Origin: Flavobacterium sp.
GTDB lineage: Bacteria; Bacteroidota; Bacteroidia; Flavobacteriales; Flavobacteriaceae
Length of the DNA stretch: 64,000 nucleotides
Direction: 5' to 3'
Assembly (NCBI RefSeq): GCF_024642105.1
Contig: NZ_JAHEBT010000056.1
Location: 22,531 to 86,530 of the forward strand
A program made the position numbers and the translations under genes. Positions 43,539 to 54,161 of the stretch are shown here, piece after piece (within the stretch, counting starts at the first letter, position 1; every line of letters starts with the position of its first letter). The notes beneath the pieces were generated by a model. It ran no database searches and was not told where the DNA came from. It saw nothing but the letters and a program-made list of their open reading frames with translations.

Positions 43539-43562
43539 AAAATCGAAACCGATTTCGATTTT
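43539..43562. promoter_or_regulatory. Palindrome upstream of bioF (candidate operator)
   Basis: AAAATCGAAA-CCGA-TTTCGATTTT between divergent genes. Confidence 0.35.
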
Positions 43563-43616: not shown

Positions 43617-43624
43617 TATTTTTG
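43617..43624 (+). promoter_or_regulatory. -7 promoter element of the bio operon
   Basis: TATTTTTG, 6 nt before ATG 43631. Confidence 0.5.
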
Positions 43625-43630
43625 TCGAGT

Positions 43631-44779
43631 ATGAAAAAATTACCTGTAACTCTTTCAGATAAATTAGCACTTCGGTTGCAAAACAACGCACTAAGGCAGT
43701 TGCCAAAAGCTTCTGGCTTGGTTGATTTTGCTTCGAATGATTATTTGGGTTTTTCCAATTCCAGTGTAATTTTTGAAGCTACACATCAGTATTTGTTAGA
43801 CCATAATCAGAAACAAAATGGCGCTACCGGTTCCCGACTGCTTTCGGGGAATCATACTGTTTATCATACTGCTGAAGACTATATTGCTCAATTTCACCAA
43901 GCACCAGCAGCCTTAATTTTCAATTCGGGATATGATGCGAATGTGGGATTTTTTAGTGCCGTTCCTCAAAAAGGAGATTTGATTTTGTACGATGAATTGT
44001 GTCATGCGTCCATTCGTGACGGAATCCAATTATCGAATGCAAAAGCCTATAAATTCCAACACAATGACTTGGAAGATTTAGAACGATTGTTAGTTCGACA
44101 TCCGGATACGACTATTTATATTGTTACCGAATCGGTTTTTTCAATGGATGGTGATACGCCTAATTTGGAAGAATTAGTCCAATTGGCTGAAAAACACAAA
44201 GCCTATGTAGTGGTTGATGAGGCACATGCTTTGGGAGTTTTAGGCGAAAAAGGAGAAGGGTTGGTGCAAAGTCTAAATTTACAAGAAACTGTTTTTGCTC
44301 GAATCATGACTTTTGGCAAAGGATTGGGTTGCCATGGAGCTGCCATTCTAGGAGGAGAGGATTTAAAAAGTTATTTGGTTAATTTTGCTCGGAGTTTTAT
44401 CTATACAACGGGTTTATCACCCCATTCGGTTGCGACTATTTTGACCGCTTACGAGCAGTTGGAGAAAGCAACGGATAGCCAACAACTATTAAAAAATAAC
44501 ATCGCTCATTTCAATCAAGAAAAGAATCGGTTGAGTTTAAAACCGTTGTTTGTTCGAAGTAAATCGGCTATTCAATCGGCTATAATTCCGGGGAATGAAA
44601 GAGTCAAAGGCATAGCACAACAACTGCAAAGTAAGGGGTTTGATGTGAAACCCATCTTGTCTCCTACTGTTCCAGAAGGGCAAGAACGCTTACGGTTTTG
44701 TTTGCACAGCTTCAATTCAGAACAAGAAATAACCGAAGTATTGCGATTGTTGAGTACTTTTGTTTTTAGCCACGGATAA
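43631..44779 (+). CDS. bioF: 8-amino-7-oxononanoate synthase
   Basis: FASNDYLG, GATGSRLLSG, DELCHASI, TESVFSMDGD, VDEAHA, TFGKGLG, RPILSPTV-like tail; last codons come from the inserted repeat. Confidence 0.93.
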   Translation: MKKLPVTLSDKLALRLQNNALRQLPKASGLVDFASNDYLGFSNSSVIFEATHQYLLDHNQKQNGATGSRLLSGNHTVYHTAEDYIAQFHQAPAALIFNSGYDANVGFFSAVPQKGDLILYDELCHASIRDGIQLSNAKAYKFQHNDLEDLERLLVRHPDTTIYIVTESVFSMDGDTPNLEELVQLAEKHKAYVVVDEAHALGVLGEKGEGLVQSLNLQETVFARIMTFGKGLGCHGAAILGGEDLKSYLVNFARSFIYTTGLSPHSVATILTAYEQLEKATDSQQLLKNNIAHFNQEKNRLSLKPLFVRSKSAIQSAIIPGNERVKGIAQQLQSKGFDVKPILSPTVPEGQERLRFCLHSFNSEQEITEVLRLLSTFVFSHG

Positions 44780-45243
44780 AACGGATTTTACAGATTTACA
44801 CGGATTATTATGACTACTTTATTACATAAAACAATTACCGATGCAGTCTTAAAAATATACTTTGATGTATATAATCAACTTGGATCTGGGTTTCTTGAAA
44901 AGGTGTACCAAAATGCAATGTATTTTGAATTAAAGAATAAAGGGTTTAAAGTAGAAGCTCAAAAACAAATTAAAGTATATTTTAGGAAACAACTTGTTGG
45001 GGAGTATTATGCCGATTTAATAGTTGAAGATAAGGTTATTGTTGAATTAAAAGCGACTGAATTACTTATGAATGTCCATGTGGCTCAAACATTGAATTAC
45101 TTAAAGGCGACAGAAATTGAAGTTGGGTTATTATTAAATTTTGGTGAAGAACCTGAATTCAAACGCATGATATATACAAACAACAGAAAAATTAATTTAA
45201 AAAATCAGTGATAATCCGTTTCATCCGTTTTATCCGTGGCTAA
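44766..45243. mobile_element. Putative minimal mobile cassette: GxxExxY gene between 41-bp inverted repeats
   Basis: TTAGCCACGGATAAAACGGAT (44766-44786) is the exact reverse complement of 45223-45243; the full arms match at 34 of 41 nt. Confidence 0.7.
44810..45211 (+). CDS. GxxExxY protein (PD-(D/E)XK-like nuclease fold)
   Basis: GFLEKVY motif (44888-44908), ADLIVEDKVIVELKA, GLLLNFG; 133 aa. Confidence 0.92.
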   Translation: MTTLLHKTITDAVLKIYFDVYNQLGSGFLEKVYQNAMYFELKNKGFKVEAQKQIKVYFRKQLVGEYYADLIVEDKVIVELKATELLMNVHVAQTLNYLKATEIEVGLLLNFGEEPEFKRMIYTNNRKINLKNQ

Positions 45244-45244
45244 T

Positions 45245-45865
45245 ATGAAATTATTTATAACAGGCATTTCGACCGATGTAGGCAAAACAATTGCTTCGGC
45301 AATTATTGTGGAAGCGCTCCACGCGGATTATTGGAAACCCATCCAGGCAGGCGATTTGGAACACTCGGATACGCATAAAGTACAAGATTTGATTTCGAAT
45401 ACACAATCACAATTTCATCCGAATAGCTACGCTTTGCAAACTCCGGCAAGTCCTCATTTAGCTGCTGCAAAAGACGGAATAACTATCGATTTGAACCAAA
45501 TTCAAGAACCTCAAACCAAGAATCACTTGGTCATTGAAGGAGCGGGAGGCATTTTGGTTCCGCTTAATGAAACACAATCGGTGGTGGATATTATTCAATC
45601 GGATTATAAAGTAATTGTGGTGTCGCGCCATTATTTAGGCAGTATTAATCATACTTTATTGACGGTAGAAGCCCTACAAAACCGAAAATTATCCATTGCA
45701 GGAATTATTTTTTCTGGCGAAGAAAATACAAGTTCTGAATCTATAATTTTAAACAGAACAGGTTTGCCGTGTATTGGCAGAATTGCCCAAGAACCGTATT
45801 TTGATACCAACGTCATAGTAGAATATGCCGATTTATTTCGAGAAAACCTTTTGAAATTGCAATAA
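45245..45865 (+). CDS. bioD: Dethiobiotin synthase
   Basis: ITGISTDVGKT, WKPIQAG, IEGAGG, LGSINHT. Confidence 0.96.
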   Translation: MKLFITGISTDVGKTIASAIIVEALHADYWKPIQAGDLEHSDTHKVQDLISNTQSQFHPNSYALQTPASPHLAAAKDGITIDLNQIQEPQTKNHLVIEGAGGILVPLNETQSVVDIIQSDYKVIVVSRHYLGSINHTLLTVEALQNRKLSIAGIIFSGEENTSSESIILNRTGLPCIGRIAQEPYFDTNVIVEYADLFRENLLKLQ

Positions 45866-45867
45866 CA

Positions 45868-47166
45868 ATGTCAAAATTCAATAGCAAAAATCCAATGAGT
45901 TTAACCGAAAAAGACAATCAATTCCTTTGGCATCCCTATACACAGCATAAGACCGCTTCGGCTCCTATTGCCATTACAAAAGGGAAAGGCGCATTGTTGT
46001 GGGATGAAAACGATAAAGAATATATTGATGCGATTGCGTCTTGGTGGGTGAATCCGTACGGACATTCTAATACCTACATTGCTGATGCGATTTACAAACA
46101 ACTGACTACTTTAGAACACGTGCTTTTTGGCGGATTTACGCATGAACCTGCTGTAGTTTTGGCTGAAAAATTGATGGCGATTTTACCCAAAAATCAACAA
46201 AAATTATTCTTTTCAGACAATGGATCTACCGCTGTAGAAGTGGCGATTAAAGTGGCGTTGCAGTATTTTTTCAATAAAGGAGAAAAGAAAACAACGATAA
46301 TTGCTTTTGAAAATGCCTTTCATGGCGATACTTTTGCGGCTATGGCAGCGAGTGGTATTTCTTTTTTTACAGATGCTTTTCAAGGAATGTTTATTGATGT
46401 AATTCGGATTCCTGTTCCTGTTGTTGGACAGGAAGAAGTTAGTTTTAACGCTTTGGCGAAAGCCCTAAAAATCCACCATTGTGCTGGATTTATCTACGAA
46501 CCTTTGGTACAAGGTGCCGCAGGAATGGTGATGTATGAACCCGCTGCTTTGGATACCTTAATTCGAATGTGTAAAGAAAATAAGGTGTTGACCATTGCTG
46601 ATGAAGTGATGACGGGATTTGGCAAAACAGGAAAAACCTTTGCATCGGATTATTTGGTAGAACAGCCCGATATGATGTGTTTGTCCAAAGCCTTAACAGG
46701 CGGTACGATTCCGATGGCAATTACGACCTTTACCCAACCTATTTTTGATACTTTTTATGACGAAGATATTAATAAGGCCTTGTTTCACGGACATACGTTT
46801 ACGGCGAATCCGACAGGTTGTGCGGCGGCTTTAGCGAGTTTGAAATTGTTGCAAACTCCTGAAATGCAAGCCAATATTTTGCGAGTAAATGCGAATCATT
46901 TGGCTTTTGAAAAACGGGTTAAATCACATCCAAAAGTAGTAACTACCCGAGTGTTAGGCGTTATTTTTGCTTTGGAAATCAAGACGGAATCGGCTGCAAG
47001 TTATTATGGAAATTTGCGTAACAAACTCTATAATTTCTTTATTGAAAACGGGGTGGTATTACGTCCTGTGGGCAATATTGTGTACATTTTGCCTCCTTAT
47101 ATAATTACGGACGAGCAATTAGAAAAAGTCTATCAAGTGGTCGAAAGTGCTCTTGAAATAGTGTAA
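45868..47166 (+). CDS. bioA: Adenosylmethionine--8-amino-7-oxononanoate transaminase
   Basis: WHPYTQH, DAIASWWVN, DNGSTAVEVAIK, IADEVMTGFG, LSKALTGG, HGHTFTANP. Confidence 0.96.
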   Translation: MSKFNSKNPMSLTEKDNQFLWHPYTQHKTASAPIAITKGKGALLWDENDKEYIDAIASWWVNPYGHSNTYIADAIYKQLTTLEHVLFGGFTHEPAVVLAEKLMAILPKNQQKLFFSDNGSTAVEVAIKVALQYFFNKGEKKTTIIAFENAFHGDTFAAMAASGISFFTDAFQGMFIDVIRIPVPVVGQEEVSFNALAKALKIHHCAGFIYEPLVQGAAGMVMYEPAALDTLIRMCKENKVLTIADEVMTGFGKTGKTFASDYLVEQPDMMCLSKALTGGTIPMAITTFTQPIFDTFYDEDINKALFHGHTFTANPTGCAAALASLKLLQTPEMQANILRVNANHLAFEKRVKSHPKVVTTRVLGVIFALEIKTESAASYYGNLRNKLYNFFIENGVVLRPVGNIVYILPPYIITDEQLEKVYQVVESALEIV

Positions 47167-47168
47167 TT

Positions 47169-48341
47169 TTGCATAAAAATAGTCCTTTGTCACCAACTAT
47201 CTCCATAACGGCCATTGCTTCTGTTTCTCCTTTGGGGAATGAACCAGAAATTATTTGGAATAAGTATCAAAATCCTAACCCGTGTTTTCAAAGTCGGTTT
47301 TTAGATCAAAAAGAGACTTGGGTAGGTCCTTTGGATGAAGATTCAAAAGCGCAAGTTGCGGCTTTGAGACAATCCGATATCAAATACAAATCCTTAGACA
47401 ATTCCGTTTTGTATGCTATGTTGGCTTCTCGTAAGGCCATTGCCAAAGCGGGTTGGTCAAAAAACGATGTTTTCGGAATTAATATCGGTTCGTCTCGTGG
47501 TGCCACCGATTTATTTGAACAACATTTTCAAGAATACATCACAACGGGCAAAGCACAAACCTTGGCTTCACCCACCACTACTTTAGGGAATATTTCCTCT
47601 TGGGTAGCGCACGATTTACAAACTGATGGTCCAGAAATTTCGCATTCTATCACTTGTTCTACGGCTTTACATGCGGTCTTGAATGGTGTAGCTTGGTTGC
47701 GTTCGGGAATGGCAGATAAGTTTTTGGTTGGCGGTAGCGAAGCTCCTTTGACTGATTTCACAATTGCCCAAATGCGTGCCTTAAAAATTTATTCTCGAAG
47801 CGAAGAACACTACCCGAATCGTGCGTTGGATTTAGATAAAACGCAAAATACCATGATTTTGGGTGAAGGTGCTGGCGTTTGTTGTTTGGAAATTGGGAAA
47901 AAAGAAAATGCTTTGGCTTACATTGAAGGCATTGGTTATGCTACCGAAATTTTAGAACACAATATTTCCATTTCTGCGGAGGCAGATTGTTTTCAAAAAT
48001 CCATGAAAATGGCTTTGGCAAACACAGATGTATCCGAAGTAGATGCCATCGTAATGCACGCTCCTGGAACTATTAAAGGCGATTTGACGGAATACAAAGC
48101 CATTGAAAAAGTATTTGGCAGCAAGCTTCCTTTATTGACCACCAACAAATGGAAAATAGGACACACGTTTGGTGCTTCGGGCATTTTGAGTTTGGAGTTG
48201 GCTATTCTAATGCTGCAACACAATCAGTTTGTGGGCGTTCCTTTTGTAAAAGCGGAAACACCAACAAGACCTATCAAAAAAGTACTGGTAAATGCCGTTG
48301 GTTTTGGAGGTAATGCGGTGAGTGTGTTGTTGTCAATTTAA
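47169..48341 (+). CDS. FabB/FabF-type beta-ketoacyl synthase-like protein in the bio operon
   Basis: Cys-His-His triad (ITCST, MHAPGT, KIGHTFGASG) and NAVGFGG; TTG start 2 nt after the bioA stop. Confidence 0.85.
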   Translation: MHKNSPLSPTISITAIASVSPLGNEPEIIWNKYQNPNPCFQSRFLDQKETWVGPLDEDSKAQVAALRQSDIKYKSLDNSVLYAMLASRKAIAKAGWSKNDVFGINIGSSRGATDLFEQHFQEYITTGKAQTLASPTTTLGNISSWVAHDLQTDGPEISHSITCSTALHAVLNGVAWLRSGMADKFLVGGSEAPLTDFTIAQMRALKIYSRSEEHYPNRALDLDKTQNTMILGEGAGVCCLEIGKKENALAYIEGIGYATEILEHNISISAEADCFQKSMKMALANTDVSEVDAIVMHAPGTIKGDLTEYKAIEKVFGSKLPLLTTNKWKIGHTFGASGILSLELAILMLQHNQFVGVPFVKAETPTRPIKKVLVNAVGFGGNAVSVLLSI

Positions 48342-53049: not shown

Positions 53050-54135
53050 TTATTTTCCTTTTACAGAGGCTTCTAAATTTCTTTCGATAGTATGACCTGG
53101 ACGCGACCATTTTGGTTTTTCGCCTAAGGCAGCATATTGAGAATCTTCGGCTTCTACTGTTGGTGGTTGTACCATTTTAGTAAATGGTTTTTGTGGTTTC
53201 AATCCCAATAATTCAAACATTTTCATGTCTTCATTCACATCAGGATTTGGAGTGGTCAATAATTTATTTCCTGCAAAGATAGAATTGGCACCCGCGAAGA
53301 AACACATCGCCTGACCTTCGCGACTCATATTGGTTCTACCTGCCGATAAACGAACTTGTGTTTCAGGCATTACAATTCGAGTTGTAGCTACCATTCGAAT
53401 CATTTCCCAAATTTCAACGGGTTCTTCGTCTTCCAAAGGTGTTCCGTCTACCGCCACCAAAGCATTAATTGGCACTGATTCCGGTTGTGGATTTAAAGTA
53501 GAAAGTGCTACCAGCATTCCTGCACGGTCTTCGATACTTTCTCCCATTCCGATGATACCACCACTACAAACAGTTACGTTAGTTTTACGAACGTTTTCTA
53601 TAGTTTGCAAACGGTCTTCGAAACCGCGTGTCGAAATCACTTCTTTATAATATTCTTCTGAAGTATCTAAATTATGATTGTAAGCATACAAACCTGCTTC
53701 GGCTAATCGCTGTGCTTGGTTTTCGGTAATCATCCCCAAAGTACAACATACTTCCATGTCCAATTTATTGATGGTACGCACCATTTCTAACACTTGGTCA
53801 AATTCGGGTCCGTCTTTTACATTGCGCCAAGCGGCTCCCATACATACACGAGAAGATCCAGCTGATTTAGCGTTCAAAGCCTGTGCTTTTACTTGGTTCA
53901 CCGTCATTAAATCATTTCCTTCTACGTTGGTGTTGTAACGTGCTGCCTGAGGGCAATACCCACAATCTTCGGAGCATCCACCTGTTTTGATGGACAATAA
54001 AGTTGAAACCTGTACCACGTTTGGATCGTGATTTTCTCTATGAATTGTGGCTGCATCATACAACAAGTCCATTAAAGGTCTATTGTAAATAGCGATAATT
54101 TCTTCTTTTGTCCAATCGTGTTTTGTAATGCTCAT
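53050..54135 (-). CDS. bioB: Biotin synthase
   Basis: CSEDCGYC radical-SAM motif, RVCMGAAW, YNHNLDTS, PESVPIN, VRLSAGR. ATG 54135 chosen because the TTG at 54156 is in the promoter. Confidence 0.97.
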   Translation of the reverse strand: MSITKHDWTKEEIIAIYNRPLMDLLYDAATIHRENHDPNVVQVSTLLSIKTGGCSEDCGYCPQAARYNTNVEGNDLMTVNQVKAQALNAKSAGSSRVCMGAAWRNVKDGPEFDQVLEMVRTINKLDMEVCCTLGMITENQAQRLAEAGLYAYNHNLDTSEEYYKEVISTRGFEDRLQTIENVRKTNVTVCSGGIIGMGESIEDRAGMLVALSTLNPQPESVPINALVAVDGTPLEDEEPVEIWEMIRMVATTRIVMPETQVRLSAGRTNMSREGQAMCFFAGANSIFAGNKLLTTPNPDVNEDMKMFELLGLKPQKPFTKMVQPPTVEAEDSQYAALGEKPKWSRPGHTIERNLEASVKGK

Positions 54136-54153
54136 GGGTGTAATTTTATGTGT

Positions 54154-54161
54154 CAAAAGTA
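54154..54161 (-). promoter_or_regulatory. -7 promoter element of bioB
   Basis: TACTTTTG on the minus strand. Confidence 0.55.

Follow-up and report, generated by a model that had tools for sequence, protein, structure and literature searches.

A 64,000-nucleotide (nt) stretch of a Flavobacterium sp. genome (contig NZ_JAHEBT010000056.1, positions 22,531 to 86,530; hereafter the window) encodes a 390-residue ketosynthase of the biotin operon at 47169..48341 on the forward strand. On balance, it is probably a stand-alone enzyme of the 3-ketoacyl-acyl carrier protein synthase II (KAS II) fold that is dedicated to biotin synthesis, and that would supply the pimeloyl thioester of BioF independently of BioC and BioH from a primer with a free omega-carboxyl group, most likely glutaryl, and malonyl-acyl carrier protein (malonyl-ACP). 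The analysis shows its fold, its catalytic residues, a substitution in its acyl pocket, its membership of the operon, transcript contigs across the bioA junction and a distribution complementary to that of BioE. What varies between lineages in biotin synthesis is the making of the pimelate moiety, and the source of pimelate is unsettled for large bacterial groups. Four routes are found in the literature to December 2025, namely BioC/BioH, BioI/BioW, BioZ and BioE, the fourth of which was published in late 2025 from a sister family of Flavobacterium (PMC12704756).

A separate family of FabF-like ketosynthases

Both ketoacyl-synthase domains of Pfam are present in the 390-residue open reading frame (PF00109, 2e-21; PF02801, 2.5e-17). 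Alignment to Escherichia coli FabF places Cys163, His297, His332 and Lys327 on C163, H303, H340 and K335 of that enzyme, respectively, and the GFGG motif at residues 378-381 on the GFGG gating loop at 399-402. The codons were read directly as TGT at 47655-47657 for Cys163, CAC at 48057-48059 for His297 and CAC at 48162-48164 for His332. An AlphaFold2 model computed with 57 family sequences as input has a pLDDT of 91.5 and a pTM of 0.93, and Foldseek matched it to FabF, FabB and mitochondrial KAS with TM scores of 0.82-0.87 at 20-25% identity. The protein is thus a condensing enzyme of KAS I/II (FabF/FabB) type within the thiolase superfamily, as judged from its sequence and modelled fold. The first-pass annotation, made from the DNA letters, had described a 390-residue condensing enzyme starting 2 nt past the bioA stop, with a Cys-His-His triad and FabB/F-like rather than FabH-like. 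All of this is borne out by the coordinates, the two domains, the alignment and codons, and the best structural matches, which are FabF and FabB.

Compared to FabF, the enzyme retains the fold, the Cys-His-His-Lys set, the GFGG loop and a length of about 390-410 residues, but differs in having 20-25% identity, Arg and Met in place of Ile108 and Phe202, HAPGT in place of HGTST, and a diverged loop 2. A separate canonical FabF is moreover encoded in the same genomes, and the identity to the canonical FabF of two related genomes (L140 and L160) is 23-24%. The score against TIGR03150 (fabF) is 142.2 bits, compared to a cut-off of 493.75, and all 17 NCBIfam ketosynthase models likewise score below their cut-offs. 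Because of this 23% identity and a score of 142 bits against the cut-off of 494, we set the ketosynthase apart from FabF orthologues. By sequence, it belongs to a large separate family that is not orthologous to FabF. At E<1e-30, a search of 1.8 billion representative sequences gave 415 clusters (50% identity), and the top 150 of these score at least 240 bits. In a tree, the 139 full-length family sequences group together, separated from E. coli FabF by a very long branch. Cys, His, His, Lys and GFGG are invariant in all 139 full-length representatives, and the invariant motifs of the family are SSRGxT, SPxTT, S-x-TC, EAPLTxF and HxPGTxxGD. The label given by NCBI to family proteins is [quoted passage not shown].

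The most telling substitution lies in the acyl pocket. The family signature S108-S109-R110-G111-A112-T113, encoded at 47490..47507 on the forward strand and located by alignment to E. coli FabF, brings Arg110 (CGT, 47496-47498) onto Ile108 of FabF, the residue at the back gate of the acyl pocket, and Phe202 of FabF is matched by Met202. Arginine occupies this position in 139/139 family representatives. By comparison, the canonical FabFs of Galbibacter and F. dankookense, which are housekeeping enzymes of Flavobacteriaceae, keep Ile and Phe at the two gate positions. The I108-F202 gate of FabF lies at C7-C8 of the bound chain, the I108F variant of FabF takes short chains only, and glutaryl methyl ester, when attached to the active-site cysteine, corresponds in length to a C7 acid (PMC9006962). 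A cationic residue at the depth of a C5 diacid is, as far as the alignment tells, the design expected for an enzyme that would bind a free omega-carboxylate and shut out longer chains.

Linkage to biotin genes and exchange with BioE

The first-pass annotation had proposed checking whether the gene co-occurs with bio clusters, and the linkage found is far beyond chance. Among 80 Flavobacterium loci fetched with the ketosynthase protein, 78 are evaluable. All 78 hold bio genes, and in 75 of them the gene immediately upstream, in the same orientation, is bioA. The gap between bioA and the ketosynthase gene has a median of 127 nt in this set, the 2-nt spacing being special to the small-genome lineage of the window. 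A diverse set of 79 loci fetched around a distant family member (73 evaluable) spans many genera of Flavobacteriaceae, Pontibacter, Solitalea, Pedobacter, metagenome-assembled genomes (MAGs) of Bacteroidales and two high-GC MAGs, and bio genes are found in 65 of the 73. Compact operons ordered bioB-bioF-bioD-bioA-ketosynthase or bioF-D-A-ketosynthase-bioB are common here, with genes that overlap or nearly abut. Five-gene bio operons with the ketosynthase occur in Flavobacteriaceae, Cytophagales (Pontibacter), uncultured Bacteroidota and the two high-GC MAGs; L152 (60% GC, labelled Acidobacteriota) and L154 (56% GC, labelled as a delta-proteobacterium) show bioB-F-D-A-ketosynthase and bioF-D-A-ketosynthase arrangements, with a 4-nt overlap of bioA and the ketosynthase gene in L154. 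Altogether, 220 fetched loci hold bioA plus bioF or bioD, and 214 of them hold the ketosynthase as well.

Clustering of the neighbours in the 79 diverse loci revealed that only bioF, bioD, bioA, bioB, recX and unrelated genes are conserved, with no conserved methyltransferase, esterase, ACP, reductase or dehydratase among them. Two intergenic gaps were considered as sites of a further pimelate gene and rejected. The gap of 2.5 kb between bioF and bioD in many Flavobacterium holds TraB/GumN-like, extracytoplasmic function (ECF) sigma and anti-sigma genes, and NfeD- and flotillin-like genes occupy the gap between the ketosynthase gene and bioB in marine genera. The former insert is seen, for example, at L012:5400-7780 and L057:5300-7770, where the anti-sigma-like product is a membrane protein; the bio operon tolerates unrelated cargo.

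The complementary distribution with BioE is the strongest argument for function. Among the 220 loci with bioA plus bioF or bioD, 214 carry only the ketosynthase, six carry only a BioE-like gene, and none carries both or neither. Within the sets fetched by BioB or BioF, the corresponding figures are 71 bio clusters with the ketosynthase, six with a BioE-like gene, zero with both and zero with neither. In the bioB-anchored set (79 loci fetched with a BioB query), 56/56 loci with bioA carry the ketosynthase, and the few loci without it are "bioB-only" or lie on truncated contigs. The bioF-anchored set, fetched with Pontibacter BioF, contains 15 clusters with the ketosynthase and six bioF-D-B-A clusters without it, from Flavobacterium notoginsengisoli, Chryseobacterium, Dyadobacter and three Sphingobacterium. 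Each of these six (L262-L264 and L266-L268) has a protein of about 205 residues with two ExxH motifs encoded immediately upstream of bioF, in addition to a divergent MocR-type regulator. This layout matches the published gene order of BioE/BioL (PMC12704756), the distribution of which is given in PMC12915131. The BioE-like proteins of about 205 residues have no match in Pfam, NCBIfam or the Protein Data Bank (PDB) and are recognised solely by their two ExxH motifs and the published gene order. No BioE-like sequence is present in the window or in any locus with the ketosynthase. Such an either-or occupancy of one operon slot, seen even inside a single genus, is what non-orthologous displacement classically looks like; because the alternative occupant is a proven pimeloyl supplier, the ketosynthase would give the same product.

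The BioE/BioL-type cluster within the genus Flavobacterium is that of F. notoginsengisoli (L262:5347-11971), ordered bioE-F-D-B-A and lacking the ketosynthase. The BioF encoded there shares only 41% identity with that of the window, which suggests, at the level of sequence, that the cluster was replaced as a whole or acquired horizontally. Other loci depart from both layouts. Among the loci listed as showing bioB alone are those of Sinomicrobium weinanense (L180), Sungkyunkwania multivorans (L216), an uncultured Bacteroidetes MAG (L223) and Polaribacter porphyrae (L234), with no further bio gene and no ketosynthase within 8 kb of bioB; they may be dethiobiotin salvagers of the kind described in PMC9561691. 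A bioB-bioF pair stands alone in Crocinitomicaceae, Cryomorphaceae-like organisms and related MAGs (L258:4033-6239, L259:6883-9080, L261:5542-7732), an odd partial pathway in that bioD, bioA, the ketosynthase and BioE are all missing within 8 kb.

Searches for the conventional pimelate genes covered the window plus about 3 Mb of relatives' flanks. With E. coli BioC and BioH as queries, tblastn gave no match in the window and 159 ketosynthase loci (~3.0 Mb), nor was a BioC- or BioH-like sequence found in the 79 further bioB-anchored loci. The window contains no SAM (S-adenosylmethionine)-methyltransferase motif, no P450 motif and no protein of plausible size with an alpha/beta-hydrolase elbow; BioW was not specifically searched. 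The statement of the first-pass annotation that bioC, bioH, bioW and bioI are missing from the window therefore stands for bioC and bioH by tblastn and motifs, and agrees with the lack of a P450 motif, the BioW part being outside the searches.

The operon in the window runs along the forward strand. Its first gene is bioF (8-amino-7-oxononanoate synthase; 43622..44779; TIGR00858, E 1e-106; Pfam Aminotran_1_2), whose product consumes the pimeloyl thioester. It is followed by bioD (dethiobiotin synthase; 45236..45865; TIGR00347, 134.8 bits compared to a cut-off of 83.3) and bioA (SAM:7-keto-8-aminopelargonate aminotransferase; 45868..47166; TIGR00508, 537.9 bits compared to a cut-off of 405). 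The TAA stop of bioA at 47164-47166 is separated by 2 nt from the ketosynthase start, a TTG codon; a second in-frame TTG at 47187 would give a 384-residue form, which is the length of many relatives. Between bioF and bioD lies a gene of the GxxExxY / PD-(D/E)XK family (44810..45211, forward strand; TIGR04256, PF13366). This insertion is seen in about 21 of the 80 Flavobacterium loci and absent from the remainder, and the gene is a variable passenger of the operon, outside the biotin pathway. The gene next after the ketosynthase is recX, convergent to the operon, and bioB (biotin synthase; 53050..54156, reverse strand) forms its own transcription unit 4.7 kb downstream, its product having Radical_SAM and BATS domains and the CSEDCGYC (CxxxCxxC) motif. 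The presence of bioF, bioD, bioA and bioB, as first annotated, is thereby confirmed by NCBIfam and Pfam models and, for bioB, by the two domains and the motif.

Upstream of bioF, at 43539-43562 of the window, sits a palindrome with 10-bp arms, AAAATCGAAA-ccga-TTTCGATTTT, which is conserved in the nearest relatives (L001-L003) only and was not found upstream of bioB, nor upstream of bioF in other genera. It was considered as a shared operator placing stand-alone ketosynthase genes in the biotin regulon and rejected, its conservation being limited to those three loci. Promoter and terminator scans around the operon did no better than on shuffled sequence. The stretch is contained in river and lake metagenomes; its source is an uncultured Flavobacterium of fresh water or rivers, and the closest relatives with a name are F. 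ammoniigenes-like. Contigs from freshwater metatranscriptome runs, derived from relatives that are about 95% identical, cover the ketosynthase gene. Three of these contigs span the bioA-ketosynthase junction, including X27 (46996-47213) and X28 (46598-47191), which fits co-transcription of the two genes, as read from assembled contigs of such relatives.

Proposed route and its alternatives

We propose the following route for the ketosynthase. A primer whose omega-carboxylate is free, glutaryl (C5) bound to ACP or coenzyme A (CoA) being the most likely, would be transferred to Cys163, with its carboxylate held by the invariant Arg110, which replaces the back-gate Ile108 of FabF, next to Met202 in place of Phe202. 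Malonyl-ACP would then be decarboxylated with the aid of His297, His332 and Lys327, and Claisen condensation would yield 3-oxopimeloyl-ACP. The housekeeping enzymes FabG, FabZ and FabI would reduce this product to pimeloyl-ACP for BioF, and the arginine-closed pocket would block re-loading of the C7 product, hence fixing the chain length. The pimeloyl thioester would thus be supplied without the methyl-ester disguise of BioC or a BioH-type esterase. The substrate, the role of Arg110, the use of housekeeping reductases and dehydratase and the independence of BioC are what we infer. We favour this BioZ-like logic of glutaryl plus malonyl-ACP because only the condensing step is specialised here, because the depth of Arg110 suits a C5 carboxylate, and because BioZ shows that the housekeeping type II system of fatty acid synthesis (FAS II) accepts free-carboxylate C7 intermediates (PMC7645780). 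The first-pass annotation had likewise suggested a dedicated pimeloyl-thioester condensing enzyme, a suggestion strengthened by operon membership across orders, exclusivity with BioE, the lack of BioC or BioH nearby and the arginine in the pocket.

Several points weigh against this proposal. About 10% of the diverse loci have the ketosynthase without any bio gene within 10 kb; because of these family members, a role in biotin synthesis alone is not strictly proven. The stand-alone loci are those of Capnocytophaga (L083, L137), Solitalea (L090), Pedobacter (L151), Flavobacterium (L140, L157) and Galbibacter marinus (L160), and their ketosynthases retain all invariant residues. The bioB of G. 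marinus is not among the 80 best bioB matches listed. The contact between Arg110 and the carboxylate is placed by sequence alignment to FabF and not by model coordinates. FabF-type enzymes normally use acyl-ACP rather than acyl-CoA primers, and no glutaryl-CoA-forming gene is linked to the ketosynthase. Finally, the contigs that represent RNA, being assemblies from relatives of about 95% identity, possibly include DNA carry-over.

One stand-alone family member lies beside kynureninase-, KMO-, ACMSD- and 3-hydroxyanthranilate dioxygenase-like genes (L086:1454-8383). The kynurenine pathway can lead to 2-oxoadipate and glutaryl-CoA. This neighbourhood may bear on the source of the primer; it is a single case and possibly a coincidence.

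The best placed of the alternatives, unlikely in our estimate, is a self-sufficient route of two rounds. Here, malonyl with its free carboxylate would be loaded and condensed with malonyl-ACP to 3-oxoglutaryl-ACP, which would be reduced, and a second round would act on the glutaryl-ACP so formed. A single remodelled KAS II, together with housekeeping FAS II, would thereby turn malonyl-ACP into pimeloyl-ACP, its own arginine neutralising the omega-carboxylate without a methyl-ester mask, and would stop at C7 because pimeloyl would not fit into the pocket closed by the arginine. The scheme resembles that proposed for Desulfovibrio, minus a dedicated ACP, reductase or dehydratase. The five-gene operons, in which the ketosynthase joins bioF, bioD, bioA and bioB and nothing else is conserved, suggest that no gene for primer supply is needed. 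A glutaryl-CoA-forming gene is not linked either. In addition, a study of Desulfovibrio vulgaris argues for methyl-ester-free elongation from malonyl-ACP (PMC10102598). However, the position of Arg110 at the C7-C8 gate is a better fit for a C5 than for a C3 carboxylate, malonyl bound to the enzyme tends to decarboxylate, and FabG, FabZ and FabI would have to accept free-carboxylate 3-oxoglutaryl intermediates. As a milder counter-argument, Desulfovibrio apparently needs dedicated ACP, ketoreductase and dehydratase genes that are absent here.

It is improbable that the ketosynthase has no part in biotin synthesis and, as a paralogue serving another lipid or polyketide or as a back-up of fatty acid synthesis, merely travels with bio genes. 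The stand-alone copies far from bio genes, with every invariant residue in place, would agree with such a role, and those of L140, L157 and L160 lie beside a canonical fabF. Nevertheless, in different families, orders and apparently phyla, the gene has stayed beside bioA although the rest of the cluster is extensively rearranged, start and stop codons commonly overlap or are separated by a few bases, and the neighbourhood has no conserved genes for other lipids or polyketides. The either-or pattern with BioE also speaks for biotin synthesis.

Least probable of all is a helper function in the conventional BioC route, with bioC and an esterase elsewhere in the genome and the ketosynthase elongating the methyl esters of malonyl- and glutaryl-ACP, which FabF or FabH of the organism would handle poorly. 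In its favour, Bacteroides species of the same phylum use BioC and BioG (PMC3494674), bioH of E. coli is unlinked to the bio operon, and the bioC search was confined to the window and flanks. However, bioC normally resides inside the bio operon, and the search of about 3 Mb surrounding 160 copies, and of the 79 bioB-anchored loci, gave nothing resembling BioC or BioH. Moreover, exchanging a hydrophobic gate residue for a cationic arginine runs counter to the needs of a neutral methyl ester. As BioE is a complete supplier of pimeloyl, its strict alternation with the ketosynthase implies that the latter takes over that entire slot.

Relation to known pimelate routes

Taken as a supplier of the pimeloyl thioester from glutaryl and malonyl-ACP, the ketosynthase has its likely functional analogue in BioZ. 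BioZ condenses glutaryl-CoA with malonyl-ACP, and FAS II completes the product (PMC7645780). It is encoded in an alpha-proteobacterial bio operon without bioC, bioH, bioW or bioI (PMC7645780, PMC8024396, PMC12625853), and the ketosynthase loci are likewise bio operons without other pimelate genes. The two enzymes differ in scaffold, BioZ having the KAS III/FabH fold and a Cys-His-Asn triad, compared to the FabF/FabB fold and the Cys-His-His plus Lys set of the ketosynthase. They also differ in how the carboxylate is met: BioZ holds that of glutaryl by two serines, whereas the present family has an invariant arginine at the FabF back gate.

An extended bio cluster of Desulfovibrio was reportedly predicted by Rodionov in 2004. 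In D. vulgaris, the genome of which lacks bioC and bioH, the FabF-like DVU2563 is genetically required for growth without biotin, as shown by randomly barcoded transposon sequencing (RB-TnSeq, PMC10102598). The ACP, reductase and dehydratases of the extended cluster DVU2558-DVU2565 are also needed for biotin-free growth (PMC10102598). The likeness lies in a KAS I/II-type ketosynthase inside a bio cluster and in the methyl-ester-free elongation to pimeloyl-ACP that has been proposed for it. The Desulfovibrio module, however, further comprises a dedicated ACP, a 3-oxoacyl-ACP reductase, two FabZ-like genes and, at an unlinked site, a nitroreductase-like gene, compared to the ketosynthase alone here. 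Its route is described as typical of anaerobes, whereas the present family is found in aerobic Bacteroidota.

In sister lineages of Bacteroidota, Weeksellaceae among others, the corresponding place in the operon belongs to BioE of the BioE/BioL route (PMC12704756, PMC12915131). It is an unrelated protein with unrelated chemistry, a ferritin-like diiron oxygenase that needs O2 and cleaves long-chain acyl thioesters oxidatively at C7-C8. BioE clusters include a MocR-type regulator, compared to none adjacent in clusters with the ketosynthase.

Precedents for the idea thus exist in BioZ and the Desulfovibrio cluster. The first-pass annotation had named BioC/BioH, BioW, BioI and BioZ as the established routes, a list to which BioE (PMC12704756) and the Desulfovibrio cluster with DVU2563 (PMC10102598) must be added. 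Its view that such a route was previously uncharacterised needs tempering, as a KAS II-type enzyme in a bio cluster has a precedent in DVU2563 (PMC10102598). For Bacteroidota, no FabF-type biotin enzyme is described in the full-text literature searched, subscription-only papers being outside that scope.

Flavobacteriia are reported among the main aquatic biotin prototrophs and producers (PMC9561691). If the ketosynthase is their pimeloyl supplier, it would close the gap in biotin synthesis for hundreds of Flavobacteriia species, and would mean that a condensing enzyme was recruited into biotin synthesis a second time, independently, and on a KAS II rather than a KAS III scaffold. The cationic back gate would provide a simple structural rule for retuning a fatty-acid enzyme to a dicarboxylate, and the gene would be a compact one-gene part for engineering of biotin or pimelate production. 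Should the two-round version be true instead, it would amount to a fifth, oxygen-independent and self-sufficient route in most Flavobacteriaceae, themselves major producers of biotin in aquatic systems, in Cytophagales and in some other phyla.

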